Source: Acidobacteriota bacterium (lineage in GTDB: Bacteria; Acidobacteriota; Thermoanaerobaculia; Gp7-AA8). Taken from it: a DNA stretch of 64,000 nucleotides. The notes beneath the pieces are model-generated. The model worked only from the letters and a program-made list of their open reading frames with translations, was not told where the DNA came from and made no database searches. Shown here piece by piece: positions 1-51,350 of this stretch. Positions within the stretch are counted from its first letter, which is position 1, and each line of letters begins with the position of its first letter. The position numbers and the translations under genes were made by a program. The stretch is taken from contig JAJXWV010000078.1 of assembly GCA_021781455.1 (NCBI GenBank), positions 3,991 to 67,990 on the forward strand. Reading direction: 5' to 3'.

Positions 1-11
1 CGTCGCTCCGC

Positions 12-1517
<1,506 letters not shown>

Positions 1518-2623: not shown

Positions 2624-4333
2624 CTACAAGGTCGGCCGGCTCTCCTGCGCCATCACTCTTCCGATCTCACGCCAGGTCACGAGCTTCACGCCGTTGACCT
2701 GGAGCAGGTCGCGGAAGGCGTCGCTCGTCAGGAAGTCGAAATCGCGCTGGCGCCAGGCCGAGCCCCAGTTCGGGTGATCGACCGTGACGGACCGCATCTC
2801 CTCGTCGTCGTATGCGATGTGCACGATGAGCTCCGTCACTCCTGGCTCGAGCTTGCGGATCACGCCGGCGTAGAAGTCCCCCCATCCTTCGGGCGCGACC
2901 TCGGGGCCGATCGTCACGAAGCGGTCGATGACCACGTCGTCCGCGGTGATGAGCGGACCAAGCGACGGATCCTCGAGGAAGGCCGCCGGGATGGCCGCCG
3001 GAATCCTCCACTCCCGCGAAACGCGCAGGAGCATTCCGAACAGCGCCGCGTTCAAGTGAAGCGTGCGCATGTGCGCGTCGAGGTGCGTCGGCCTAACGCC
3101 CGCTTCGCGCAGTTTTTCGATCTGCGCGCGCACCTCGGCCTCTGCTTCCCGCACGTCGGCATGCGCGGCGGCCTGGTCCTCGGTCGCGTAGAAGTTGCCG
3201 CTCGCGTCCAGCAGCGAACGGACGTCCGCCTTCGGCAGCACTCCACCCCATCGATATCCCTTCCATTCGGCGGTCAGGGTCAGGTGCACGCCGAGGTCGG
3301 CGTCGGGGTGCTGGCGCGCCCATGCGGCGATCTCCTCGAATGAGGTACAGGGGACCATGATGCTGGCCGAGCTCACGAGCCCGCCGGTAAGCGCCCTGGT
3401 CGATGCCGCGTTGACGGAGTGCGCCATGCCGAGATCGTCGGCATGAACGATGAGGAGCTTCGTGCCTGCCGGATATCCGAGCCGCTCGGCGAGAGGCGTT
3501 GGCGAGGCCGGCGCAGGACGGACGGGCGGCGGGAAGACCTCCATCAGCGTGAAATCGACCCAGAAGATCGCTTCGGTGTTCGGCACGGCGCCCAGCAGGG
3601 CCTGGCCGATTTTCTGCGGAGGATCGTCGAATCGGATCCACCAGGGGCGGTCCGCTCTGTACCCGATCTGGAAGGCGACGGGCGCCGGCGCGAGTGCGTG
3701 GCCCCACGCGGAAAATTCTTTAACCATCGAATCGAGATCGGGAAAGATCTGCCCGTCGTTGATGAACACAATGCCGTCGCGCTCGGCCGGCGGCATCTTC
3801 TCGACGAGCCAGTGCTTCAGGAAGAGCCTGTAGTTCGAGCCGTGGCGGCGGATCGCACGGACCCACGCCCGCGCCTGCTCGTCGCTGACCGGATCGCCGG
3901 CGTCGGGCGTGCTGGAGCGGTACCACTCCACGTCGATACCGAAGCCCTGCACCGAGCGATGGCCTCCGTAGCGGCTCAGCACGACGTCGATGAGCTCCTC
4001 GACTGAAGCATGCGAGGGCTCGACCTGCAGCCAGACGCGGTAGCCGAGGCGATCGAAGCGCGCCAGCGCAGCCTCGTTGGCGTCCTCGGAAGAACCGGTG
4101 ATGAGAGGATCGCGTGCCGTCACAGGAAAGTTGAGGAGAATGCCGTTCCCGTTCTTCTTGCCCACGATCCAGATCGCTTCGGGGACGGCGCCGTCGAAAT
4201 GCTTCGCCATTTCGACTCCGGTGCGCGCCCAGTATTCCGGTCCGGGGTCATGCGGGGGACCGTAGACCGAGTATCGGAAGCCGGCGCCCTTCGGAGGAGG
4301 CGACTGAAGGCCTGTTGAGGCACACCCTGCCAT
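2624..4333 (-). CDS. Predicted lipoprotein: N-terminal TIM-barrel-like carbohydrate-hydrolase-type domain fused to a C-terminal YdjC/ChbG-family carbohydrate deacetylase
   Basis: The C-terminal half (LLIVHADDLGMAHSVNAASTRAL…HLDAH…) matches the YdjC-family N-terminal DD-G motif region. The N-terminal ~270 aa has no domain I can name, though GFGIDVEWY resembles a glycoside-hydrolase barrel strand. The annotated Met is followed by AGCAS (lipobox-like). A better signal peptide lies upstream in an adjacent frame; see findings. Confidence 0.65.
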   Translation of the reverse strand: MAGCASTGLQSPPPKGAGFRYSVYGPPHDPGPEYWARTGVEMAKHFDGAVPEAIWIVGKKNGNGILLNFPVTARDPLITGSSEDANEAALARFDRLGYRVWLQVEPSHASVEELIDVVLSRYGGHRSVQGFGIDVEWYRSSTPDAGDPVSDEQARAWVRAIRRHGSNYRLFLKHWLVEKMPPAERDGIVFINDGQIFPDLDSMVKEFSAWGHALAPAPVAFQIGYRADRPWWIRFDDPPQKIGQALLGAVPNTEAIFWVDFTLMEVFPPPVRPAPASPTPLAERLGYPAGTKLLIVHADDLGMAHSVNAASTRALTGGLVSSASIMVPCTSFEEIAAWARQHPDADLGVHLTLTAEWKGYRWGGVLPKADVRSLLDASGNFYATEDQAAAHADVREAEAEVRAQIEKLREAGVRPTHLDAHMRTLHLNAALFGMLLRVSREWRIPAAIPAAFLEDPSLGPLITADDVVIDRFVTIGPEVAPEGWGDFYAGVIRKLEPGVTELIVHIAYDDEEMRSVTVDHPNWGSAWRQRDFDFLTSDAFRDLLQVNGVKLVTWREIGRVMAQESRPTL

Positions 4334-4461: not shown

Positions 4462-4515
4462 GGCGGCCGCAGTCCATGCACGAGAGTTGCTGTGCTGTTA
4501 GAGAAGGAGGAGACG

Positions 4516-4946
4516 ATGGACCAGACTCGAGCGGTGACGAATTCCGAGGAGACTCCGGTCAATCGCGTGACGGTCGACGAGGTCAGGGCACGCCTCGACC
4601 GGCGTGAGCCGATCGTCTTCGTGGACAGTCGAAGCGAAAAGGCGTGGAACGGCTCCGAAGTGAAGATCCGGGGAGCGTTCCGAGTATCGCCGGAGCGCGC
4701 CGATGAGTTCCTGTCGCGCGTTCCGAAGGACCGCGGCGGCATCATCACCTACTGCACGTGACCGAACGAAGGATCAAGCGCCCGTGTGGCGCAGGTGCTG
4801 ATTCGTGCGGGGTTCAAGGACGTGCATGCGCTGCACGGCGGGTTGGAGGCGTGGCAGTCGGCCGGCGGCGCAGTCGAGCCGAAAGATGCGACCGCCGAAA
4901 TCCGCCCGCGCGACGAACAACGCCAGGACGAAGGACGGCGGGCCTG
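4516..4946 (+). CDS. Single-domain rhodanese (sulfurtransferase) interrupted by one in-frame TGA at 4759-4761 inside the active-site loop: candidate selenoprotein or nonsense-disrupted gene
   Basis: ATG at 4516 is preceded by GAAGGAGG. The first segment ends …RGGIITYCT then TGA. The same frame continues PNEGSSARVAQVLIRAGFKDVHALHGGLEAWQSAGGAVE… to a TGA at 4944-4946. Together the two halves form a complete GlpE-like rhodanese fold. A GC hairpin (GCGCC-CGUGU-GGCGC) begins ~16 nt after the internal UGA. Confidence 0.55.
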
Positions 4947-6884: not shown

Positions 6885-8453
6885 TCATGCCGTCGCTTCC
6901 ACATCGATGTTGAATCTCCTGACGAAGATCTGCTGCAGCTCCTCCACGCGGATCGGCTTCGTGAGATGCGCGTCGAAACCGGCCGCCGTGGCCTTGTCCT
7001 TGTCGTCGGCCTGGCCGAACCCGGTCAGCGCGATCAGCAGGATCGGATCGGACAGGTCCTCCCGCACGCGCCGCGCCACTTCGTAACCGTCGAGGCCGGG
7101 CATGCCGATGTCGATGATGGCCACGTCGGGACGGCTCTCCGTGATCCGGCGCAACCCGCTGTGGCCGTCCGAGGCCGTTTCCACGAGGTGCCCGAGCTTC
7201 TTGAGCTTGAGCTGCAGCAGGTCGCGGATGTCGGCGTTGTCGTCGACGATGACGATGCGCCGGGTGGCGCAGACGAGCTCCGCCGCCGTCGGCCGCGAGG
7301 GCGCCGCCGCCGGCAGGACCGCCTGTTCTTCCGCCAGCGGAAGGGTGACCGTGAAGGTGCTCCCCTGGTCCAGCCCCGGGCTTCGAGCCTCGACCTCTCC
7401 GCCGTGAAGCTGCACGAGAGTCCGCACGAGATGCAACCCGATGCCCATGCCTCCCTGAGCGCGTCCGATGGCGTTCTCGGCCTGGCTGAACAACTCGAAG
7501 ATCGAGTCGATGCGCTGCCGCGAGATGCCCACGCCGGTATCCGAGACCACGATGGCCGCCTTCCCCTCGCGCTTTTCCGTCCGGACCGCGATGCGACCGC
7601 CGGCGGTGGTGTACTTGAGAGCGTTGGTGATCAGGTTCGTGATGATCTGCTCGACGCGCAAGGCATCCGCGTGCACGACCAGAGGCTCGTCGGCGGCCTG
7701 GAAGCTGAGGCCGATCTCGCGCCGGGAGCTGTCGCCCTGCTGCGACTCCACACATTGCCGGACCACGGAGCTGAGCTCGAGCAGGCCGAGCTTCAAGGCG
7801 ATCTTCCCGGTGGTGATGCGCGACAGGTCGAGCAGATCGTCGACCAGACTGGAGAGATGGTGGGCCTGCCGCTCGATGCGCTCGGCATGCTGGGCATCGA
7901 GGGTGGCCGTCAGGGGATCGACCATCTGCGCGGCCAGGACGATCGCGCCTAACGGATTGCGCAGCTCGTGCCCCAGGATCGCCAGGAAGCGGTCGCGCTC
8001 GGTGATGCGGTCCTCGAGCTTGGCCAGAAGGTCGCGGATCTCGTATTGACGCGTCCGGGCCCTGGCCACCGCCTGAACGATGCTCACCACGCTCTTCATT
8101 CGCACCGGCCGGTCGACCAGCGTGACGTTGGCGCGCGGCCCGAGCTCCTCGAGCCGGCGCAGATAGCGGTGATCCGAATCGGGCCCAGTAAAGATCACGA
8201 TCGGGAAGTCGGACCACAAGGGCTGGTCGTCGATGAAGCTGCGCAGCGTCCGCACCACCGGCGGAACGAGGACTTCCTCGGTCGTCAGAAGCGCCAGGGA
8301 TTCGTTCCCCAGCCCCCGCTCCAGCTGCGAAACGTGCGGCACTTCGCCGGACGCCACGCCCGCGGCCTGCAGCACCCCCTTCAACAGCTCCGCGTCACGA
8401 CGGACCGGAGTGCAGATCAGTGCGGGCGAAGAGTGGACCGCCTGTTCGATCAT
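6885..8453 (-). CDS. Hybrid sensor histidine kinase: N-terminal pseudo-receiver, HisKA, HATPase_c, C-terminal canonical receiver
   Basis: H-box ILGHELRNPLGAI. ATPase N/G boxes ITNLITNALKYT, VSDTGVGI. C-terminal receiver with DDN…VAIIDIGMPGLDG…LTKP. The N-terminal ~130 aa is receiver-like but has T in place of the acceptor Asp (LALLTTEE). Confidence 0.85.
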   Translation of the reverse strand: MIEQAVHSSPALICTPVRRDAELLKGVLQAAGVASGEVPHVSQLERGLGNESLALLTTEEVLVPPVVRTLRSFIDDQPLWSDFPIVIFTGPDSDHRYLRRLEELGPRANVTLVDRPVRMKSVVSIVQAVARARTRQYEIRDLLAKLEDRITERDRFLAILGHELRNPLGAIVLAAQMVDPLTATLDAQHAERIERQAHHLSSLVDDLLDLSRITTGKIALKLGLLELSSVVRQCVESQQGDSSRREIGLSFQAADEPLVVHADALRVEQIITNLITNALKYTTAGGRIAVRTEKREGKAAIVVSDTGVGISRQRIDSIFELFSQAENAIGRAQGGMGIGLHLVRTLVQLHGGEVEARSPGLDQGSTFTVTLPLAEEQAVLPAAAPSRPTAAELVCATRRIVIVDDNADIRDLLQLKLKKLGHLVETASDGHSGLRRITESRPDVAIIDIGMPGLDGYEVARRVREDLSDPILLIALTGFGQADDKDKATAAGFDAHLTKPIRVEELQQIFVRRFNIDVEATA

Positions 8454-8478
8454 GGCGCGGCTCTTTCTCCCCCGATGC

Positions 8479-9963
8479 TCAAGGCGCGCCCATCCCTAAC
8501 GGCGGGTTCACTTCTTCGATGACCGGCGTGCCGGAAAGGACGCCGCGGAATCGCGTGAGCGCCGAGCCGATCTTGATCCCGTGCGCGGTGATCTGCAGCT
8601 CGCGAATCGAGGTCTCGTGAGCGCCGCTCCGCTTCTTGATCACCGAAATCGCCTTCCGGACCTGCCCCTGCGCTTCGAAATACCGGAGAAGAACCACGGA
8701 GTCGGCCAGATAGCTGATGTCCACGGTCGTCATCATCTGGCTACCGAGAAGACCGTGCTGCGCGAACACGAGAATCGTGGCGATGCCGTGCTGTCCGAGA
8801 AACGCCAGCAGCTCGTGCAGGTGGAGAAGGAGGTACTTCTCCTCGGGCATGGCATTGAGATAGCCGTTCAGGCTGTCGATGATCAGGACGCGCACGTCGT
8901 GATGCTCGACGGCCTCGCGAACCAGTTGCGCGAACTCGCCCGGCTGCAGCTCCGCCGGATCGACCTGCTGCACCATGATCTTTCCTGCCGCCACGAGCTC
9001 GGTCAGGTTGTAGCCGATGGCGTCGGAGCGATTGAACAGCGTGGTCAGGCTCTCGTCGAACGTGAAGAAGGCCGCGCCCTCGCCGCGCTGTGCCGCCGCC
9101 ACCGCGTACTGAGTGGCCAGCGCCGACTTCCCCGATCCGGCCGGACCCATGATCAGCGTGCTGGTGCCGCGGTCGAGGCCGCCGCCGAGAAGCGAGTCGA
9201 CTTCCGGGATCCCGCTGGAGACGAAGCTCTGCATGACGCGCATGCGCGACTCCGCCGCCACCAGGCGCGGGTAAACGACGATGCCCCCGGTGATGATGTT
9301 GAAATCGTGGTAGCCGGCGCGGAACTTCAGTCCGCGCACTTTCACCATCTGCAGCCGCCGGCGGGCCATGCCGTAATTCGGAGTGAAGCGCTCCATCTCC
9401 AGCACGCCGTGAGGGACGCTCTGCAGCTGCATGTCCTTCACGTCGGAGGTGCGGTCGTCGAGCAGCAGCGCCGTGATCCTGCGGGAATCGAAGAACTGCT
9501 TCAGGGCCAGGATCTGCTTCCGGTAGCGCAGAGAGCTCTGCGCCAGCAGACGAATCTCGGAGAGCGAGTCGAGCACCACCCGGTCGGGCGCGGCCTCGTC
9601 GATGGCGTCGAGCATCTTCTTGACCGCCGGACCGAGCTCGATCTCCGAGGCCTGGAAAATCGTGGAGTCTTCCTCGGCCAGCTCGTCCTCTCCGACCAGC
9701 TGCTCGACGATCTGGATGGGATCGAGATTCCATCCGTGCGATCGGGCCACGGCCCGCAGGTCGCGTTCCGATTCCGACATGGTGATGTACAGACCCCGCT
9801 CGCCGTTCCTCGCTCCCTCGAGCAGAAACTGCAGGGAGAGCGTCGTCTTGCCGACGCCGGGGTCGCCCTGGACGAGGTAAATGTGATTGCGCGGAAAGCC
9901 GCCATTCAGGATCCGGTCGAGCCCCTCGATTCCGGTGGCGGCGGCGTCGTCTTCAAAAGACAT
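8479..9963 (-). CDS. kaiC: KaiC-family double-domain RecA-like ATPase
   Basis: Two tandem KaiC/RadA-like domains, each with a Walker A (GDPGVGKTTLSLQF; GPAGSGKSALATQY), Walker B and catalytic Glu. 494 aa. AAGGAG before the ATG. Confidence 0.85.
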   Translation of the reverse strand: MSFEDDAAATGIEGLDRILNGGFPRNHIYLVQGDPGVGKTTLSLQFLLEGARNGERGLYITMSESERDLRAVARSHGWNLDPIQIVEQLVGEDELAEEDSTIFQASEIELGPAVKKMLDAIDEAAPDRVVLDSLSEIRLLAQSSLRYRKQILALKQFFDSRRITALLLDDRTSDVKDMQLQSVPHGVLEMERFTPNYGMARRRLQMVKVRGLKFRAGYHDFNIITGGIVVYPRLVAAESRMRVMQSFVSSGIPEVDSLLGGGLDRGTSTLIMGPAGSGKSALATQYAVAAAQRGEGAAFFTFDESLTTLFNRSDAIGYNLTELVAAGKIMVQQVDPAELQPGEFAQLVREAVEHHDVRVLIIDSLNGYLNAMPEEKYLLLHLHELLAFLGQHGIATILVFAQHGLLGSQMMTTVDISYLADSVVLLRYFEAQGQVRKAISVIKKRSGAHETSIRELQITAHGIKIGSALTRFRGVLSGTPVIEEVNPPLGMGAP

Positions 9964-14657: not shown

Positions 14658-14665
14658 ACGAGATC

Positions 14666-14770
14666 GCAGATCACAGATCGCAGATCGCAGGTTTCCTCTC
14701 CGGCGAGCTGCGAACTGAGACCTGCGACCTGAGAGTCGAGACCCGCGACCTGAGACCCGAGACCTGCGAC
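14666..14770. repeat. Two short tandem-repeat arrays upstream of glgX: ~3x CAGATCGCAGAT-like and ~4x GAGACCYGCGACCT-like
   Basis: gatcgcagatcacagatcgcagatcgcag … gagacctgcgacctgagagtcgagacccgcgacctgagacccgagacctgcgacc read directly. They end 15 bp before the glgX RBS AAAGGAG. Confidence 0.6.
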
Positions 14771-14787
14771 CTTCAAAGGAGACGACG

Positions 14788-16914
14788 ATGACCACGACTG
14801 AAATGAGTCCCGTCCCTGATCATGCGCTCAGGACGGAAGCCCCGCCGCGTCAGCACGCCGTCGGGGCCGGACATCCTCACCCTCTCGGCGCGCGTGTCGA
14901 TCGGCAGGGCGTCAACTTCTCAGTCTTCTCCCAGAACGCCACGGGAGTCGAGCTGCTGCTCTTCGAGGGGCACGATTCGCCGCAGCCGTACCAGACGATC
15001 CGCCTCGACCCGGTGCAGAACCGCTCGTACGGCTTCTGGCATTGCCACGTGGCCGGGCTGAAGGCCGGCGCCCATTACGCCTATCGCGTCGAAGGGGAGT
15101 GGTCGCCGGAAGCGGGCCATCGCTTCAACCGCAACAAGGTCCTGATCGACCCGTGGTCCTTCGGCAATAGCAACACGCTCTGGGTCCGCGGAGACGCCTG
15201 CAGCATGGACGACAACGTCGCCACCTCGATGCGCAGCGTGGTCATCGACGCCGGCTCCTACGACTGGGAGGGCGATCGTCCGCTGGACCGCCCCATGCGC
15301 GAATCGATCATCTACGAGATGCACGTCCGCGGCTTCACGCGATCGGCGCGCATCGCCCATCCCGGAACCTTTCGCGGCGTGATCGAGAAGATTCCTTATC
15401 TGCGAGAGCTCGGCATCACCGCCGTGGAGCTGCTCCCGATCATGGAGTACGACGAGAAGGAGATCCTCCGCCTGGCGCCCGACGGCACTCCCCTCACCAA
15501 CTACTGGGGCTACAGCACCATCGGATTCTTCGCGCCCACCAGCAACTACTGCGTCTCTTCGGAGGCCGGCGGCCAGCTCGACGAGTTCCGCGACATGGTC
15601 AAGGCCCTGCATAAGGCCGGCATCGAAGTCATCCTCGACGTCGTCTTCAACCACACCAGCGAAGGCAACCACCTCGGGCCGACCATCAACTACAAGGGCT
15701 TCGCCAACTCCATCTACTACCACCTCTCGCCGTTGAACCGCGCTTACTACATGGATTACAGCGGCTGCGGCAACACGATGAACTGCAATCACCCGCTCGT
15801 GCAGAAACTGATCGCCGAGAGCCTGGAGTTCTGGACGCGCGACATGCACGTGGACGGCTTCCGCTTCGACGAGGGATCGATCCTCTCCCGCGGTGAAGAC
15901 GGCGCCCCCATGGCCCACCCGCCCATCATCTGGCGCATCGAGTTCGACGAGGCCCTGGCGGACACGAAAGTCATCGCCGAAGCGTGGGACGCGGCCGGCC
16001 TTTACCAGATCGGCTACTTCCCGGGGTTGCGCTGGGGCGAGTGGAACGGCCGCTATCGCGACGCCATCAGGCGCTTCGTGGCCGGCCAGCCCGGTATCGT
16101 CGGCGAGGTGGCCACGCGCATTGCCGGGAGCTCCGATCTCTACCAGCAGAACGGTCGCGCGCCTGCAAACAGCGTCAACTTCATCACCTGCCACGACGGC
16201 TTCACGCTCAATGACCTCGTCAGCTACAACGACAAGCACAATGAGGCCAACGGCGAGGACAGCCGCGACGGAGTCAACGAGAACTGCAGCTGGAACTGCG
16301 GAGTCGAAGGGCCGACCGAGGATCCTGCCGTCGAAGCCCTGCGCAACCGGCAGGTGAAGAACTTCGCGGCCATCCTGCTGCTGTCCGAAGGCGTGCCCAT
16401 GATCCTCGGCGGAGACGAGATCCGCCGGACCCAGCACGGGAACAACAACGGTTACTGCCAGGACAACGAGACCAGCTGGTTCGACTGGCGACTGTTGAAC
16501 GAACACTCCGACGTCTTCCGCTTCTTCAGCCACATGATCGCCTTCCGCAGACAGCAGGTGCCCCTCAAGCGCCTCTCGTTCTTCACCGGTCGCGTCAACG
16601 AGCGCGGTCTTCCCGACATCGCCTGGCACGGCTGTGCGCTCGGCAGTCCCGGATGGCACGACCCGTGGTCCCGCGTGCTCTCCTACACCATGGGCGGCGA
16701 GGGGAACGACCTGGACCTGCACGTCATCCTCAACATGTCGGACGAGACCCTCGACTTCGAATTGCCGAAACCCGGAAAGCGCTCGTGGCATCGCTTCGTC
16801 GACACCTCTCTGCCGTCGCCGCATGACATCTGCGAGCCGGGCCAGCAGCCAGTCGTGCCGGATGGCAAGGTCGCCGTCACGCCGCGCACGGTGGTCGTGC
16901 TCGTGTCGCGGTGA
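14788..16914 (+). CDS. glgX: Glycogen debranching enzyme (isoamylase-type GH13)
   Basis: N-terminal CBM48-like region plus GH13 catalytic motifs (DVVFNHT, GFRFDEG, EAWD, CHDGFTLND). 708 aa. Strong RBS. Confidence 0.85.
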   Translation: MTTTEMSPVPDHALRTEAPPRQHAVGAGHPHPLGARVDRQGVNFSVFSQNATGVELLLFEGHDSPQPYQTIRLDPVQNRSYGFWHCHVAGLKAGAHYAYRVEGEWSPEAGHRFNRNKVLIDPWSFGNSNTLWVRGDACSMDDNVATSMRSVVIDAGSYDWEGDRPLDRPMRESIIYEMHVRGFTRSARIAHPGTFRGVIEKIPYLRELGITAVELLPIMEYDEKEILRLAPDGTPLTNYWGYSTIGFFAPTSNYCVSSEAGGQLDEFRDMVKALHKAGIEVILDVVFNHTSEGNHLGPTINYKGFANSIYYHLSPLNRAYYMDYSGCGNTMNCNHPLVQKLIAESLEFWTRDMHVDGFRFDEGSILSRGEDGAPMAHPPIIWRIEFDEALADTKVIAEAWDAAGLYQIGYFPGLRWGEWNGRYRDAIRRFVAGQPGIVGEVATRIAGSSDLYQQNGRAPANSVNFITCHDGFTLNDLVSYNDKHNEANGEDSRDGVNENCSWNCGVEGPTEDPAVEALRNRQVKNFAAILLLSEGVPMILGGDEIRRTQHGNNNGYCQDNETSWFDWRLLNEHSDVFRFFSHMIAFRRQQVPLKRLSFFTGRVNERGLPDIAWHGCALGSPGWHDPWSRVLSYTMGGEGNDLDLHVILNMSDETLDFELPKPGKRSWHRFVDTSLPSPHDICEPGQQPVVPDGKVAVTPRTVVVLVSR

Positions 16915-16942
16915 AGATTCGAGGCGGCGTAGCCGCCGACAC

Positions 16943-17124
16943 AATTTAGCGGCGGCCGTCAGGCCGCCGCCCGCTCAGACAGCCCTTGGTCCGAGCGCGC
17001 GAAGCACGCGACAGATCCTCGTGTCTGTTCCTCCAGACTGCTGTCGGACACTTCGTGCCCTCGTACGCTGGGTGCGATTGCTTATTCCGGCGGCCTGACG
17101 GCCGCCGCTAAATTCTGGCGGCGG
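16943..17124. mobile_element. MITE-like non-coding element: 27-bp perfect terminal inverted repeats (AATTTAGCGGCGGCCGTCAGGCCGCCG) around a 128-bp core
   Basis: Arm 1 at 16943-16969 and arm 2 at 17098-17124 are exact reverse complements. Additional short GC hairpins flank at 16921-16936 and 17127-17139. No ORF inside. Confidence 0.4.
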
Positions 17125-17149
17125 CTTTGCCGCCTATGCGAATGCGGCA

Positions 17150-17215
17150 GCGCACAGCAGTGATAGCACTCAGGACTCAGCACTCAGCACTCAGCACTCA
17201 GGACTCAGCACTCGT
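17150..17215. repeat. Tandem CTCAG(G)ACT / CAGCACT-type repeats upstream of the molybdenum hydroxylase operon
   Basis: ctcaggactcagcactcagcactcagcactcaggactcagcactcg read directly. The same motif forms a hairpin at 36420-36480. Confidence 0.6.
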
Positions 17216-17310
17216 CACCGCATCGCATCGGCTGGTGACGATCGTTACGACCTCGACCGCGCCACGGGCGAACCATGGACGTGCATTCCATCGTCCGATC
17301 GGAGGTCCTC

Positions 17311-17946
17311 ATGTCGGATTCCACCAAGGGAGTTTCCCGCCGCGGATTCCTCAAGGGCGCGGGGAGCGCCGCCGCCGCCACGGCGCTGCTCGACTCGGCG
17401 GTCCTCACGGTGCGTGAGGCGACCGCGCAGATCACCGGTCCTCCGGTCTACGGCCCCGGCCGCACGGAACTGGCGCTCCACGTGAACGGTTCCGAGCGCA
17501 CCGTTCTCGTCGAGCCGCGCACCACCCTCGCCGCCGCCTTGCGCGACGAGCTCGATCTGACCGGCACGAAGGTGGTCTGCGATCGCGGCGCCTGCTCGGG
17601 ATGCACGGTCTGGATCGACGGCCTTCCGGTGGCCTCCTGCATGACCCTGGCGATCGACGCCGCCGGCAGGAAGATCACGACGATCGAGGGTCTGGCCACG
17701 GGCGACAAGCTGCACCCGGTGCAGGAGGCCTTCATCGAAAAGGACGCCATGCAGTGCGGCTTCTGCACTCCCGGCATGGTGATGACCGCGGCGGCGCTGC
17801 TGGAGCGGAATCCCGATCCCACGCTCGACGACGTGAAGGAGGCCGTGAGCGGCAACCTCTGCCGCTGCGCGGTCTACCCGCAGGTCTTCGAGGCCACTCT
17901 GGCCGCGGCGAAGAAGCGGAAGGCTAGCCAGATCGCAGGTAGCTAG
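17311..17946 (+). CDS. Molybdenum hydroxylase (xanthine dehydrogenase/aldehyde oxidoreductase family) small [2Fe-2S] subunit with Tat signal peptide
   Basis: The twin-arginine motif SRRGFLKG follows MSDSTKG. There are two [2Fe-2S] Cys clusters (CDRGACSGCTV; QCGFCTPGMVM…CRC). GGAGG RBS. The earlier ORF-track Met is rejected. Confidence 0.85.
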   Translation: MSDSTKGVSRRGFLKGAGSAAAATALLDSAVLTVREATAQITGPPVYGPGRTELALHVNGSERTVLVEPRTTLAAALRDELDLTGTKVVCDRGACSGCTVWIDGLPVASCMTLAIDAAGRKITTIEGLATGDKLHPVQEAFIEKDAMQCGFCTPGMVMTAAALLERNPDPTLDDVKEAVSGNLCRCAVYPQVFEATLAAAKKRKASQIAGS

Positions 17947-21498: not shown

Positions 21499-21507
21499 AT
21501 CACCCGA

Positions 21508-21584
21508 TCTGAGATTTGAGATTGATGATTGATGAACCGAAGCGGATTTTGGACTTCGGTTCATCAATCATCAATCTCAAATCA
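21508..21584. repeat. ~75-bp perfect palindromic element (GAGATTGATGATTGATGAACCGAAG … CTTCGGTTCATCAATCATCAATCTC)
   Basis: Read directly. A second copy of the same arms is at 51121-51187. Confidence 0.75.
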
Positions 21585-21692
21585 CAAATCCGACGGCGCC
21601 GTCTGCGTTACCATTTCTGCGGGCACACGCGTGTCGTCATCACGCGCGAACAACTGGCCCGCACCATCGAGCAGAGCTGTAAGGAGGCAATG

Positions 21693-22094: not shown

Positions 22095-22919
22095 TCAAGG
22101 CGGCGCGACGAGCTGCAGGCGCGACCGCACGATCTGCTGCCAGCGTGAGCGCTGATTCATCGGATCGCCGGCTGCGATCAGAGGAGTGAGTCCATCGCGG
22201 CGAAGGATCGACTGGTGGCGCGCCAGTTCGGCTTCGAGGTCGCTGGCGGACCGCAACGGATGGGTCCGAACCTCAGGATCGAACAGTCGCTCGAGAAGGG
22301 CGACGGCCTTCTGCAGCGCCCGCGTACGCCACAGCGGCGTCGCAGCCACGGTGGCGACCTCGACGAGCTCGGCGTCGTCGATCGTCCACGAGCGGAACTT
22401 CGCCAGGATCGGGCCGAACGACAGCGCCGCGTCGAGGTTCCCGACGAGGTCCAGCCAGATGCCCGACGGATGGACGAACGTGTCAACGCAGCGCCGGCTC
22501 CCTTGTGACGCATCCGAGCAGTCGCGCATCAGCAGAGTAAAGCCGAGGTCGGTGGCCGCGGCGCGGTAGGGAGCAAGCTTCGCGCACATCAGGGCCGCGC
22601 CGTTGTTGCGGCACAGGGCCGCGCGATCAGGGCCGTTGGCCCGGCCTTCGATGTCTTTCGGAAGTGCGCTCATGACGCCGGTCGCAACCTCTGTGGCAAA
22701 TATTGGCTCCCATCCTATTGATGTCAATGCAATAAGGAACAGGCGGCACCGCCGCCGTAGAAATTGAGGGTACGGAGTGCCCGGCATACCAGGGTCATCT
22801 GTCGCGCGCTTGGTGTGCACGGCGCGACTCCGGCGGGCGGACGCCGGCCTGACAGGCTCAGCAGATCGCGGCGGCGGCGCCTCCGACGCCTCGCAACGAG
22901 CGCGACAGCATGACACCAC
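22095..22919 (-). CDS. Hypothetical protein (start uncertain; likely begins near MSALPKD, ~22700)
   Basis: Good coding composition in the C-terminal ~200 aa. No recognisable domain. Confidence 0.4.
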   Translation of the reverse strand: MVSCCRARCEASEAPPPRSAEPVRPASARRSRAVHTKRATDDPGMPGTPYPQFLRRRCRLFLIALTSIGWEPIFATEVATGVMSALPKDIEGRANGPDRAALCRNNGAALMCAKLAPYRAAATDLGFTLLMRDCSDASQGSRRCVDTFVHPSGIWLDLVGNLDAALSFGPILAKFRSWTIDDAELVEVATVAATPLWRTRALQKAVALLERLFDPEVRTHPLRSASDLEAELARHQSILRRDGLTPLIAAGDPMNQRSRWQQIVRSRLQLVAPP

Positions 22920-36742: not shown

Positions 36743-39700
36743 TCACTGCGTTCCCGCTCGCAGCTCGGTGAGCTGTCCCGCCTTGATCACCGTGAGCGTT
36801 GCCGAGACGGTGCCGTCGGTGTAGCTGAGTGTGGGTAGCCCGATTGTCGATCGTGCACCATCGAGTGCAGCGCGGAGCTCGGTAAGGTGCAGGCGTTTGA
36901 TCGTCGTGCTCCCCGCCGAGAGAGTCGAATCCGTGAAGGCGGCCGGCGCTAGTCCGGCTGCCGCGCGCATCGCGTTGACTGCCGTGCGCAGTTGCGTGAT
37001 GTGCACAGCCTTGATCCAAACACCGCTGAGAACGGCGTCGTCGAAGACGGTCGTCGTGGCGGGGTCGATGGCCGTGAACGCCGACGTGCCGCCAGCGACT
37101 GTCGCGCGAACCTTGTAGAGATAGGTCGTGTCTGTGGCGAGCCCGCTGTCGGTTTCCGACGTTCCCGCAGGACTGGAGACGAGGGTGTATGGACCGTTGA
37201 GTGAGCTTCGCCAGACCTCGTAACCCGTCGCATCGGTGACGGTGGACCAGGTCAGATCCACCTGCGAGCTGCTCGTCGCCGTGGCGGAGAGCGATGCTGG
37301 CGCATTGAGGGCGTAGTACGTGAAGCCATTCACTGCTGTGGCGCTGCCGCCACTCCCAGCAACGACGACGTCCACGGCGCCCACCGCATGCGCAGGAGTC
37401 GTGAACGTCGCCGTCGTGTCCATCGTGCTCGTCATCGCCGCTGCGTTGCCGCCGATCGTCACGCTCGCCTCCGAGAGGGCGTAGCCCGTGATCGTGACCT
37501 GGTCCCCTCCTGCCGCGCGGCCATTGCTCGGGTTGATGCTGATGATCGTGGGAGCGGCGTTCCCTGTGATCAGCACGAGGCGCTGGATGCTCGGAATGGC
37601 GTTCGTAACGATCGTGGCGCGATAGCAGCCGTTGGCGAGCCCCGCCAGCCGCGGCGTGCGGAAGAACTGATCGCTCCATGGCCCCCCCGGACCGACGAAC
37701 AGCGTCTGGTCGTTGTCCACGCGCTGCAGTTGGAGGAGGGGGTAGTTCGTTGGGGAACTGTTGAACGAACCGTTGGACGATTCGAAGCCTCCGCGGAAGC
37801 CGTTGCCGAAGAGCATGATCGTAGCCGGCTGGGAAAAGCCCCAATCTACGGCAACGATGACGGGGCGCATGGAATCGGCAAAGCCGGCACCCGCGTCGTA
37901 GAGCTCGGCCGTCACGGAGCCGTCGCCTGTGTTCCCACCTGCAATGAGTACCTTCCCGTTCGGCAGCAGCGTCGCCCCGTGGGCGTCGCGTGACGTGCCG
38001 AGACTTCCAGTGGCGGCGAACAACCCGCTTGCCGGGTCGTACAACTCGGCCGACGACAGGCGTCCGGCGGTTCCGTCCCCGCCGGCGAACAGCACCTTGC
38101 CGTTCGCGAGCAACGTCGCCGTACCGCTGCCGCGTCCTTCGACCAGGTTTCCGGTATTGCTGAACGAGCCGCTCGTCAGGTCGTACAACTCGGCCGAAGC
38201 CCGATAACCGCCGGGGCCGCTTCCACCGGCGATCAGCACCTTCCCGTTCGGCAGCAGCGTCGCCGTATGGAGATACCGCGCCGTCGCGAGACTGCCTGTG
38301 GCTGTGAACGTCCCGCTCACCGGATCGTATAGCTCTGCCGATGTCGTGTACCCCGGACCATAGCCGCTCGCAATGAGCACCTTGCCGTTCGGCAGCAGAG
38401 TCGCGGTGTGGTGGCCGCGTGCTGTGATCAGGCTGCCCGTCGCTGTGAACGTGTGGTTTACCGAGTCGTACACCTCGGCCGACGACAGGTAGACGTCTGT
38501 GTATCCGCCGGCAATGAGCACATTCCCGTTTGGCAACAGCGTCGCCGTGTGGAGCTGCCGGCCCGTGGCGAGACTTCCGCCCGCTGTGAACAAGCCGGTG
38601 AACGGGTCGTACAGTTCGGCCGAGGTCGCGTACCCGGTTGCGCCAATGCCGCCGGCAACGAGAACCTTCCCGTCGGTCAGTAGCGTCGCCGTATGCGAGA
38701 TGCGTCCGGTGGCCAGGCTACCCGTGGCCGTGAATGTCCCGGTCGACGGTTCATACAGCTCGGCCGAAGCGAGATACCCGCCGCTGCCGAAACCGCCGAC
38801 GACCAGGACTCTGCCGTCCGTCAGCATCGTCATCGTCGGATACTGCCGGCCCGCAGTGGGACTTCCCGTGCCCGCAAACACGCCCACGGCCGGGTCGTAC
38901 AGCTCGGCCGATATGGAGGACCCGCCGGCAATCAGCACCTTCCCATTCGACAACAAGGTCGCCGTCGCAATACCACGCTCGCCCGCGAGAGTTCCGGCGT
39001 TGCTGAACGTTCCGCCTACCGGGTCATACAGTTCGGCCGAGGTCAGGGGCGAGCCGAGCCTGACGCCGCCGGCAAAGAGCACTGTACCGTTCGGCAGCAG
39101 CGTCGCCGACACGTAGTAACGCGCGATGGCGAGACTTCCCGTGTTGCTGAACGTGCCCAACTCAGGGTCGTAGAGTTCAGCCGAGGTCAGGCCGGCGTAG
39201 CCGCTGGCGGCGTTTCCACCAGCGATCAGCACCTTTCCGTTCGCCAGCAACGTTGACGAATGGAGATACCGCGCCGTGCCAAGGCTTCCCGTGGCGCTGA
39301 ACGTGCCGCTCGCCGGATCGTAGAGCTCGGCCGACGCCAGGACAGTGGTTGTGTAACCAGCACCCTGCCCACCGGAGATCAGCACCTTCCCGTTGGCAAG
39401 CAGCGTTGCCGTGTGCTCGAACCTCCATGTGGTCATGTCTCCCGTGGCGCTGAACGTGCCGCTCGTCGGATCGTACAACTCCGCCGACTTCAAGAGCGCC
39501 GTCCTTCCTTCCCCGCCAGCGATCAGGACCTTCCCGTTCGGCAGCAGTGTCGCCGTATGGCGGTCCCGGCTGAAGCCCATGGTCCCGGTGACGCTGAACG
39601 TCCCTGTCGCCGGGTCGTACAGTTCTGCCGACTGTCCGACGATCAGCACCTTCCCGTTCGGCAGCAGCGTTGCCGTGTGGTAGGCCCGAGCCCCGCTCAT

Positions 39701-40654
39701 GCTTCCGGTGGCGCTGAACGTGCCGGTTGCCGGGTCGAACAACTCGGCCGACGCCAATGGCTCGATGTTGCCGTCGTATCCGCCGGCGATCAAGACCTTC
39801 CCATTCGGCAGCAGTGTCGCCGTATGGGTCCCCCTTGCAGTGCCAAGACTTCCTGTGACGCTGAACGATGGATCAACGACCAGCGGATATGCGAGTCCCT
39901 CCGTGCTCAGCGTCATGCGAAGGGTCTGCGTGGCCTTTCCATCGCCGACGAGCGTCCACTTCGCATGTGACTCGGAACGCCGCCCCGCCGCATCGACCAC
40001 CCACGGCCGGTCGATCTGCAGGATGGCGGGCAACTGACTGAACCGCCCTGACGCGATTGTGGTGGAAACTTTACTCGTCTTGGGCAGAAAGCGGATGGCT
40101 CCTCCGTCCATCACCACGGCGCTTACCCCGCGCATCTCCACGATTTCGTAGTCGTAGACGAGCGGTGCGCTCTTGTCATGCAGCAAGAGCAGCTCTTCGC
40201 TGCGTCCGCTGTCCGGAATTTCGAGAACATCGACCGAGCCGTACGTGCCCTGATAGATCAGCTTTCCGTTTGTGGCCTCCGCCAGCGCGCCGCGGGCGTC
40301 GACAGCGCGCAGAACAACGCGTTGGCTACCGAGCGTGACGACCAGAGGATCCTTGTAGAACCGGGGCCAGGTTATGTGCAGCGTCGTTGCGGCGTCCGCG
40401 AGTGCCGTTGGGTCGGGAATTCCGGGCAGATCAGCTCTTGACGAAGCTTGCTCGAAGTGTGCGCGCAAGCCTGACACGACAGCACGGCCAACCGTCTCCA
40501 CGGCTGGTTCGAATGTCGCCGAAGTCTGGACTGGCACGGAGGGGAACTCGTCGCGCAGCTGCCGCTCGACCGGATGCATCGGCGCAGCGTCGAGCGTCAG
40601 GGCCGCGCAGAACAGCAGCATGGAACTCGCAGGGACCGATCTGGCAGACCGCAT
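36743..40654 (-). CDS. Very large secreted Kelch-repeat protein with IPT/TIG and fibronectin-III domains
   Basis: Signal peptide MRSARSVPASSMLLFCAALTLDAAP. About 20 tandem Kelch motifs (…TATLLPNGKVLIAGG…AELYDP..GTFS.TGS…). Then IPT/TIG-like segments (APTIISINPSNG…VTITG…; AVDVVVAGSGGSATAVNGFTY) and an FN3 domain (…LTWSTVTDATGYEVWRS…TTYLYKVRA…). Confidence 0.8.
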   Translation of the reverse strand: MRSARSVPASSMLLFCAALTLDAAPMHPVERQLRDEFPSVPVQTSATFEPAVETVGRAVVSGLRAHFEQASSRADLPGIPDPTALADAATTLHITWPRFYKDPLVVTLGSQRVVLRAVDARGALAEATNGKLIYQGTYGSVDVLEIPDSGRSEELLLLHDKSAPLVYDYEIVEMRGVSAVVMDGGAIRFLPKTSKVSTTIASGRFSQLPAILQIDRPWVVDAAGRRSESHAKWTLVGDGKATQTLRMTLSTEGLAYPLVVDPSFSVTGSLGTARGTHTATLLPNGKVLIAGGYDGNIEPLASAELFDPATGTFSATGSMSGARAYHTATLLPNGKVLIVGQSAELYDPATGTFSVTGTMGFSRDRHTATLLPNGKVLIAGGEGRTALLKSAELYDPTSGTFSATGDMTTWRFEHTATLLANGKVLISGGQGAGYTTTVLASAELYDPASGTFSATGSLGTARYLHSSTLLANGKVLIAGGNAASGYAGLTSAELYDPELGTFSNTGSLAIARYYVSATLLPNGTVLFAGGVRLGSPLTSAELYDPVGGTFSNAGTLAGERGIATATLLSNGKVLIAGGSSISAELYDPAVGVFAGTGSPTAGRQYPTMTMLTDGRVLVVGGFGSGGYLASAELYEPSTGTFTATGSLATGRISHTATLLTDGKVLVAGGIGATGYATSAELYDPFTGLFTAGGSLATGRQLHTATLLPNGNVLIAGGYTDVYLSSAEVYDSVNHTFTATGSLITARGHHTATLLPNGKVLIASGYGPGYTTSAELYDPVSGTFTATGSLATARYLHTATLLPNGKVLIAGGSGPGGYRASAELYDLTSGSFSNTGNLVEGRGSGTATLLANGKVLFAGGDGTAGRLSSAELYDPASGLFAATGSLGTSRDAHGATLLPNGKVLIAGGNTGDGSVTAELYDAGAGFADSMRPVIVAVDWGFSQPATIMLFGNGFRGGFESSNGSFNSSPTNYPLLQLQRVDNDQTLFVGPGGPWSDQFFRTPRLAGLANGCYRATIVTNAIPSIQRLVLITGNAAPTIISINPSNGRAAGGDQVTITGYALSEASVTIGGNAAAMTSTMDTTATFTTPAHAVGAVDVVVAGSGGSATAVNGFTYYALNAPASLSATATSSSQVDLTWSTVTDATGYEVWRSSLNGPYTLVSSPAGTSETDSGLATDTTYLYKVRATVAGGTSAFTAIDPATTTVFDDAVLSGVWIKAVHITQLRTAVNAMRAAAGLAPAAFTDSTLSAGSTTIKRLHLTELRAALDGARSTIGLPTLSYTDGTVSATLTVIKAGQLTELRAGTQ

Positions 40655-51046: not shown

Positions 51047-51120
51047 ATAGCCTCCTATTGTGAGCTCGACTTCACAGCGAATACTCGCAAAGGAATTGCC
51101 ACCTTCGAACGAATTTAGGA

Positions 51121-51187
51121 GCTGAGATTGATGATTGATGAACCGCAGCGGCCGTCTTCGGTTCATCAATCATCAATCTCAAATCCA
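51121..51187. repeat. Second copy of the GAGATTGATGATTGATGAACC…GGTTCATCAATCATCAATCTC palindromic element
   Basis: Arms identical to 21508-21584; the central loop differs. Confidence 0.75.
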
Positions 51188-51350
51188 AGATCGTAGGAAT
51201 GACCGCTTTCCGTGACGCACTGTCCTCCCACGGAGATACCCGCTGGCCGGCCGGAATCACCGGTCCGCCGCAAAGTGCTGAAAACACGAGAAGCATCTCT
51301 GGCGCACCGATCGCACAAATACCGTCGGGCCCGTTCGTCCGGAGGTGCCG

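Follow-up and report, generated by a model that had tools for sequence, protein, structure and literature searches.

What is a perfect inverted repeat of 27 nt, set around a core without a gene, doing between a gene for a GlgX-type isoamylase (glgX) and a molybdenum-hydroxylase operon? The structure lies in a 64,000-nt stretch of DNA from an Acidobacteriota bacterium (contig JAJXWV010000078.1; hereafter the window), and the initial annotation of the window offered two answers, a miniature inverted-repeat transposable element (MITE) or a long-stem structured RNA. Our analysis makes a third answer likely, namely that the element is a doublet, with no gene inside, of a repeat resembling the repetitive extragenic palindromes (REPs), built like the bacterial interspersed mosaic elements (BIMEs) and the REP doublets called REPINs, and associated with a transposase of the Y1 (HUH) type. 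It is not a classical MITE, and it is probably not a small RNA (sRNA) gene. The striking palindrome is in this way explained as a member of a repeat family and not as a locus-specific regulator.

The element consists of two inverted units of ~95 nt, and the 5' CTGTCG ends of both point inward across a short central spacer (Table 1). A covariance model of the ~95-nt unit (R1) recognises the left unit with 89.1 bits and the right unit with 97.1 bits. The left arm of the perfect repeat lies where the initial annotation had placed it, while the right arm, there given as 17098-17124, is found ten bases further to the left; the core between the arms measures 118 nt and arms and core together span 172 bp, in place of the 128 nt and 182 bp reported before. 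The arms extend beyond the perfect repeat to 48 nt with 92% complementarity (16922-16969 and 17088-17135), and a weaker symmetry continues through the core nearly to its centre. Within each arm there are two self-complementary GC hairpins. In hairpin 1 a perfect stem of 8 bp carries a loop of 4 nt, and its pairing is complete (100%) in 11 of 11 units. The smaller GC hairpins which had been noticed at both ends of the repeat are indeed present and belong to the unit as its hairpin 2. Both strands of 16915-17140 fold, with z ~ -10.5. When the window was shuffled 100 times with its dinucleotide composition kept, no match with three or fewer mismatches arose, and the inverted repeat is therefore beyond chance, as had been proposed. 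The absence of a transposase open reading frame (ORF) was also correctly seen: the core holds short ORFs only, such as 16986-17111 (41 aa), and a tblastn search of the 64-kb window with the Y1 protein described below gave no copy.

Local searches match both arms to the Rfam family Acido-Lenti-1 (RF01687), at 16922-16969 (- strand, 31.5 bits) and 17088-17134 (+ strand, 27.6 bits), with E-values of 1e-5 to 1e-4. In both cases the alignment covers the 46-nt model from its first position to its last (1-46). Both arms keep the UGAC loop and the CUAAAUU linker, and the first stem is wholly different and fully compensated; it is because of this difference in stem sequence that both scores stay below the gathering threshold of 37 bits. 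The matches surface only when a short stretch is searched, and a search of the whole window against Rfam in E-value mode misses them owing to its speed filters. A second model (R2), built from the 44 published Acido-Lenti-1 seeds alone, gives 34.5 bits for the right unit and 33.8 bits for the left (E ~1e-5). Common to the Rfam motif and the window element are a hairpin 1 with an N-CU.AC-G loop, a GCUA linker and a second short hairpin; the difference is that these parts here behave as two-thirds, on the outer side, of a repeat unit in DNA that is found beside a Y1 transposase gene. The published seed alignment itself contains many copies per genome, often in regularly spaced clusters and sometimes in alternating orientation (PMC2864571), and this clustering, spacing and alternation amounts to repeat-like behaviour.

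The element is one member of a dispersed family. A genome scan with the pattern CGGCGGNCTNACGNCCGCCGCTA, taking one genome per species, gave at least 53 matches on at least 47 stretches, and the copies in the Thermoanaerobaculia metagenome-assembled genome (MAG) JADGOA01 align far past the 46-nt motif and give a unit of ~95 nt. In order, this unit comprises CTGTC, hairpin 0 (GGGCGC-TAC-GCGCCC), TCGACGCTGG, a variable spacer of ~16 nt, hairpin 1 (CGGCGGCC-TGAC-GGCCGCCG), CTAAGCTCTTTC, hairpin 2 (GGCGGC-TAC-GCCGCC) and a final T. Compensatory changes are seen in hairpins 0 and 2 among 11 aligned units. With R1, at least 14 units were detected on 10 contigs of JADGOA01, and several well-preserved singlets were found. 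The divergent doublet of the window recurs at L013, L021 and L044, and also at L022 in a MAG of the Planctomycetota (L numbers denote individual loci), with 4-26 nt between the units of a doublet. L013 is 92% identical to L028 over 132 nt, a stretch that takes in the centre of the doublet as well as the "variable" spacer, and the flanks of the two are unrelated, which is the signature of duplicative spread. No target-site duplication was found at the borders of five gene-less doublets, nor at the available borders of two gene-bearing pairs. The window itself contains a probable second doublet copy in a state of decay, in which hairpin 1 is eroded and hairpin 0 with its CGACAG end, the linker and hairpin 2 are still recognisable. 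R1 matches it at 22739-22787 with 25.5 bits (E = 0.001), and its local alignment score of 86 is the highest among 360 window segments (mean 47, sd 7.7).

The evidence that ties the family to a transposase comes from loci in which the same two inverted units flank a gene for a 149-aa Y1/HUH (IS200-like) transposase. Three related loci have this structure (L027, L050 and L141/L142). At L027, with the arrangement of the window, units at 1-69 (-) and 588-682 (+) surround an ORF at 124-522 (132 aa), which matches the Pfam domain Y1_Tnp (PF01797, 6e-22) and the NCBIfam model of IS200/IS605 transposases (NF033573, 65.3 bits against a cutoff of 55). The protein of L050 is 65% identical; its gene at 830-1279 stands between units at 682-779 (-) and 1301-1395 (+), and outer partner units are present too. 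The units are 518 nt apart in L027 and 521 nt apart in L050, and the central spacer of the window element is the place which the ~520-nt Y1 gene segment takes in the gene-bearing versions. In an Acidobacteriota MAG (L051) the units flanking the Y1 gene pass the RF01687 threshold (51.2 and 37.5 bits vs 37), and in a member of the Thermoanaerobaculia (L056) the flanking copies have a different stem with the same loop and the same short conserved sequence beside the stem (the foot, see below). The full-length Y1 homologues have 148-150 aa and carry DHVH, WQ and Y---Q--HH, the motifs by which Quentin et al. (2018) characterise their subclass 1.2. Members of this subclass, recognised by Y---Q--HH, were described there as low-copy, without features of an insertion sequence (IS) and as "REP: no" (PMC6006769).

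The association is widespread in the subclass. R2 was run on 80 metagenomic loci that encode it, and the results are given for the 69 loci in which each flank of the gene measures 200 nt or more. A (-) match upstream together with a (+) match downstream was obtained in 32 and a match on one flank in 22, so that one or both flanks were matched in 54 of the 69. The matches lie at median distances of 59 and 57 nt from the gene. Within 200 nt of it there are 3.5 matches per kb, vs 0.105 per kb elsewhere, a ~33-fold enrichment. A strict regular expression (perfect stem of at least 7 bp, C-T.AC-G loop) was also tried and was set aside, as it detected flanking hairpins in just ~18 of the 80 loci and the covariance model detected far more.

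Look-alikes of hairpin 1 in MAGs of Verrucomicrobiota and other groups (L003, L007, L011) were considered as family members and rejected: R1 matched them over the 20-nt hairpin only, and R2 gave no match. In MAGs of the Armatimonadia (L010 2431-3159 and L023 19-372), look-alikes of hairpin 1 flank a Y1 homologue in the convergent, that is opposite, orientation, and also form same-strand tandem arrays that repeat every ~150 nt and have another kind of three-hairpin unit. These are possibly a sister system of repeat and Y1 enzyme.

We infer that the organism of the window carries a cognate Y1 gene as well. The contig k141_779213 of ERZ27236853 in ENA (L001) is identical to the window across the region, and another contig of the same assembly (k141_2260956, L141) encodes the Y1 protein P0243, a cluster member of the L050 transposase. 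On L141, units at 2854-2950 (-) and 3472-3566 (+) lie around the Y1 gene (3001-3450), and a third unit follows at 3671-3767 (-). L141 is 92.7% identical to L050, much as the window is 91-94% identical and syntenic to L140, a 210-kb contig; L050 and L140 both come from the assembly ERZ25039489, and the GC content is 0.657-0.661 in all four. It is the shared assembly, the GC content and the parallel divergence that point to a Y1 gene in the window's organism. In both of the ~92%-identical relatives the Y1 gene is followed by a gene for an ankyrin (Ank)-repeat protein and then by a major facilitator superfamily (MFS) gene, and such a constant context is more in keeping with a single-copy gene passed on vertically than with an active IS. 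Between the two units beside the Y1 gene of L141 there are also four tandem 22-nt repeats (3570-3670, GCATGAAGGCGCAGGTCGAGCC), which seem to have arisen from the end of the neighbouring unit (3671-3767) that carries hairpin 2.

The gene-bearing loci also suggest another origin for the doublet, in which the Y1 unit is an active IS moving by single-strand "peel and paste" and the window element a miniature IS200/IS605-type derivative made by internal deletion, with both ends moving together. The doublet does equal the gene-bearing element minus ~500 nt, the inner boundaries (CGACAG and CTGTCG) are shared by the two, the associated gene encodes an IS200-type Y1 (HUH) transposase that passes the IS200/IS605 model, and the gene-less window element recalls the palindrome-associated transposable elements (PATEs), likewise short non-coding elements with both structured ends of a Y1 element and no target-site duplication. 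However, the known IS200/IS605 ends are not inverted and both of their hairpins act on one strand (PMC8266576), whereas the ends here are inverted, (-) upstream and (+) downstream. The parent IS of PATEs is multi-copy and mobile, whereas the Y1 gene here is apparently fixed in position, with the same neighbours in two ~92%-identical relatives, and belongs to a subclass described as low-copy and without IS properties (PMC6006769). Well-conserved singlets, moreover, are common. An origin of this kind is therefore unlikely in our judgement, and a doublet of a Y1-associated REP-like repeat is the better account of the same structure.

An origin as RNA has to be weighed because of the Rfam family. 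Acido-Lenti-1 was rated a likely RNA on the basis of covariation by Weinberg et al. (2010, PMC2864571), who considered it trans-acting, found it in Acidobacteria and Lentisphaerae and noted that it is sometimes near group II introns; Rfam files it as "Gene; sRNA" with unknown function. The window element would then comprise two sRNA genes, or else encode a single RNA with a long stem, and would act as RNA. Besides the matches of both arms to RF01687, the strong covariation of the stem across lineages is in line with this: among the 72 best matches 99.7% of the cells pair, and double-sided changes occur in 12 of 13 pairs. However, DNA hairpins read by a Y1 enzyme predict equal covariation, and the pairing is Watson-Crick in 923 of 929 cells, with G-U in 3 of the 929. 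The published seeds (alignment A4), read on the strand annotated in Rfam, have 20 A-C mismatches vs 6 G-U pairs. An A-C mismatch is a G-U pair on the opposite strand. The near-pure Watson-Crick pairing and the excess of A-C thus fit a DNA palindrome better than an RNA made from the annotated strand; if wobble pairs matter, the complementary strand of the seeds would fold better, and either the annotated strand or the RNA reading may be wrong. In addition, the copies occur in both orientations and symmetrically about a transposase gene, a scan of the element for sigma-70-like promoters gave none, no T-run of a U-tract terminator follows hairpin 0, 1 or 2 of the unit, and the arms of the window remain below the Rfam threshold. 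Since the unit also occurs singly, the long stem is a by-product of two units standing in inverted order, and the long-stem RNA that the initial annotation had offered no longer serves as a primary explanation. We regard an RNA origin as very unlikely.

The 72 best matches also reveal what appears to be a foot of the palindrome. Directly after stem 1 they have C-T-[A/G] with hardly any variation, C being present in 72 of 72, T in 71 of 72 and A in 52 of 72. Read on the opposite strand, the foot is NTAG and precedes the palindrome; 26 of the 72 matches have ATAG, 16 have TTAG and 9 have GTAG, and the window has TTAG. This comes close to the GTAG foot of REPs, but the two are not the same.

The comparison with L140, which was reached through P0241, a 90%-cluster member of GlgX, bears on the possibility of a stem that is selected locally. 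Homology between L140 and the window ends at the glgX stop codon and restarts at window position 17191. In between, the window has 276 nt with the doublet, and L140 has 1576 nt (8128-9703) without a unit; its segment contains an ordinary stem-loop after glgX and an ORF of 507 aa on the opposite strand, for which Pfam gave weak matches and no significant one. The presence of different segments shows that the intergenic region between glgX and the molybdenum-hydroxylase operon is a variable spot. It had been proposed that a single-copy element with conserved synteny in all relatives would point to a cis-regulatory stem; the element is not a conserved syntenic feature, as the close relative lacks it. 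A bidirectional terminator or a stabiliser of the mRNA 3' end would suit the position of the element, which begins 5 nt past the glgX stop codon and ends ~135-170 nt before the next start codon, and secondary effects of such a kind are known for REP/BIME elements (PMC8266576). Its absence from the site in L140, which has its own ordinary stem-loop, the occurrence of the same element at unrelated loci and the lack of a T-run after the outer hairpins speak against this function, the lone terminator-consensus match in the element being a weak 6-bp stem within the right unit; local selection is a highly improbable explanation of the element. An effect on the 3' end of glgX or on the downstream operon is possible and would be secondary. 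The closest GlgX homologues among those listed (75% identity, L057-L059) were also considered as empty-site comparisons; they lack synteny and are uninformative.

A classical MITE, that is a deletion derivative of a DDE-transposase IS with terminal inverted repeats (TIRs) recognised by the enzyme and with target-site duplication, is hardly credible despite the perfect 27-bp inverted repeats, the small size and the missing ORF, since none of five doublets is bordered by a direct repeat, half-elements occur alone and the only gene that was seen to lie between such ends encodes a Y1/HUH transposase. What remains of the MITE proposal is that the element belongs to a miniature, non-autonomous and dispersed family, is absent in L140 and has ends that elsewhere flank a transposase gene; the "TIRs" are self-folding hairpins, and the enzyme is not of the DDE type.

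Several observations weigh against the interpretation as a doublet of a Y1-associated REP-like repeat. The foot is NTAG, or TTAG in the window, and not the canonical GTAG, which accounts for just the 9 of 72 matches mentioned above. The L027 protein is not a class-2 REP-associated tyrosine transposase (RAYT), as it scores 20.6 bits against a cutoff of 80 with the REP_Tyr_transpos model (NF047646). No flanking R2 match is present in 15 of the 69 Y1 loci, and the 64-kb window has just one intact copy and one decayed copy. That L141 belongs to the genome of the window is inferred from assembly, GC content and parallel divergence. L140 is no clean empty site, as it has a different segment of 1.58 kb in the same place and so does not define the boundaries of an insertion. 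Finally, mobility and an interaction of enzyme and repeat are attributed to this Y1 subclass by analogy with better-known relatives.

From that analogy, the doublet is probably mobilised in trans by the subclass-1.2 Y1 enzyme. The ~95-nt unit folds into three GC-rich hairpins on single-stranded DNA, and the enzyme would recognise the folded hairpin 1 together with the foot (CTA after the stem, or NTAG before the stem on the other strand). It may then cut and rejoin single-stranded DNA through a 5'-phosphotyrosine intermediate, by which singlets and doublets could be copied or moved in trans without target-site duplication. The catalysis, the strand specificity and a current activity of the enzyme are suggested by TnpA(IS200/IS605) and TnpA(REP) (PMC8266576).

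In many respects the system can be compared to the REPtrons, in which REPs, BIMEs and REPINs are linked to a RAYT (TnpA-REP) gene (Nunvar 2010; Bertels & Rainey 2011, PMC3116915; Ton-Hoang / Corneloup 2021, PMC8266576). Both have a palindromic unit with a conserved short foot, singlets as well as inverted doublets with a short spacer (26 nt in the window), apparently dispersed intergenic copies without target-site duplication, a cognate Y1/HUH gene bracketed by the same repeats in inverted order, and a stem sequence that appears to co-vary with the enzyme lineage. There are also clear differences. The enzyme here has a class-1, subclass-1.2 signature and 148-150 aa and is not a class-2 RAYT with its YI..NP-type Y motif, the unit is ~95 nt with three hairpins whereas REPs have one palindrome of 20-50 nt, the foot is NTAG (TTAG in the window) whereas that of REPs is mostly GTAG, and the hosts are Acidobacteriota and Planctomycetota whereas those of REPs are Proteobacteria.

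The TIRtrons are similar in that longer inverted repeats flank the tyrosine-transposase genes (TIRYTs). Some of these repeats are self-complementary or "double palindromic", and they also occur in moderately abundant families of single, dimeric and grouped copies; Koribacter versatilis, an acidobacterium, is one of the hosts (Di Nocera et al. 2013, PMC3733652). TIRYT proteins are mostly of subclass 2.1, with ~238 aa, a C-terminal helix-turn-helix and a GGGGWSAS motif in the repeats (Quentin et al. 2018, PMC6006769), whereas the enzymes here are of subclass 1.2 with 149 aa and the repeats have another consensus. The Koribacter TIRYT repeats (PMC3733652) were considered as a possible identity of Acido-Lenti-1; their proteins are in the other subclass, 2.1, and we do not claim a link.

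On balance, and with more reserve than for the window element itself, we favour the view that Acido-Lenti-1 is the REP-type terminal structure of subclass-1.2 Y1/HUH transposases. Repeat and enzyme together would then represent a new REPtron/REPIN-like system that has come from the IS200 side, independently of the class-2 RAYTs, with a ~95-nt three-hairpin unit and in several non-proteobacterial phyla. Acido-Lenti-1 has been filed as an orphan sRNA for 16 years, and the family would thereby gain a testable identity as transposase-bound DNA repeats and not as an sRNA gene. In the limited set of literature that we searched, queries on transposases or REPs brought up no paper that mentions Acido-Lenti-1, and Weinberg et al. 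(2010) make no link of this kind. Subclass 1.2 was described in 2018 without an associated REP and without IS properties (PMC6006769), and a missing repeat partner would be supplied for a Y1 subclass believed to have none. Host-repeat systems of the REPIN/RAYT kind, which have been studied almost only in Proteobacteria, would be extended to Acidobacteriota and neighbouring phyla, and a new pair of enzyme and hairpin would be available for studying how HUH enzymes read single-stranded DNA. For annotators, RF01687 matches probably mark repeats and not RNA genes.

Table 1. Positions of the element, its parts and neighbouring features in the window; parts of the left unit are listed as read on the - strand.
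Feature	Position	Strand	Remarks
Whole element, REPIN-like doublet	16920..17137	.	218 bp, two inverted ~95-nt units
Left unit	16920..17014	-	alignment A2, pair counts, R1; begins with CTGTC
Left unit, hairpin 0	17009-16995	-	
Left unit, spacer	16994-16970	-	
Left unit, hairpin 1	16969-16950	-	
Left unit, linker	16949-16938	-	CTAAATTGTGTC
Left unit, hairpin 2	16937-16923	-	
Central spacer between units	17015..17040	.	26 nt
Right unit	17041..17137	+	alignment A2, R1; begins with CTGTC
Right unit, hairpin 0	17046-17060	+	
Right unit, spacer	17061-17087	+	
Right unit, hairpin 1	17088-17107	+	CGGCGGCC-TGAC-GGCCGCCG
Right unit, linker	17108-17119	+	CTAAATTCTGGC
Right unit, hairpin 2	17120-17134	+	
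Left perfect 27-nt arm	16943..16969	+	AATTTAGCGGCGGCCGTCAGGCCGCCG
Right perfect 27-nt arm	17088..17114	-	exact reverse complement of AATTTAGCGGCGGCCGTCAGGCCGCCG
Probable decayed second doublet copy	22735..22895	-	upstream of ORF ending at 22095
Upstream gene, GlgX-type isoamylase	14788..16914	+	Pfam CBM_48, Alpha-amylase, ISOA1-3_C
Downstream gene, twin-arginine translocation (Tat)-signal 2Fe-2S subunit	17275..17946	+	first gene of molybdenum-hydroxylase operon

The Pfam domains of the neighbouring genes agree with the location assigned to the element from the start, between glgX and the molybdenum-hydroxylase operon. The start of the 2Fe-2S subunit as called in L001 corresponds to window position 17311, and the genes for the molybdenum-cofactor and FAD subunits come after it.

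A second and unrelated repeat family is present in the window in the form of AT-rich (~38% GC), near-perfect long hairpins at 21507-21589 and 51112-51190. Their loci are 30 kb apart and share identical 21-nt arms (GAGATTGATGATTGATGAACC), which 0 of 100 shuffles matched; in Rfam they give spurious plant-miRNA-like matches only. Similar long hairpins, with "MIR1437" matches, occur in L050 at 2780-2883 and 4495-4596. Tandem repeats with periods of 144 and 120 nt and 67-79% identity at 37934-38341 and 39520-39752 of the window are probably repeat domains within coding sequence.

Intergenic tandem arrays of heptamers and hexamers are common, with examples in the window at 17165-17213, 14661-14772, 2279-2346 and 286-342. 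An array of seven AGCACTC repeats stands 28 nt past the right unit, where L140 has ~3 repeats, which indicates that the copy number is polymorphic. At L041, an array of 10.7 CTACTCG repeats (3067-3141) begins directly after a unit.

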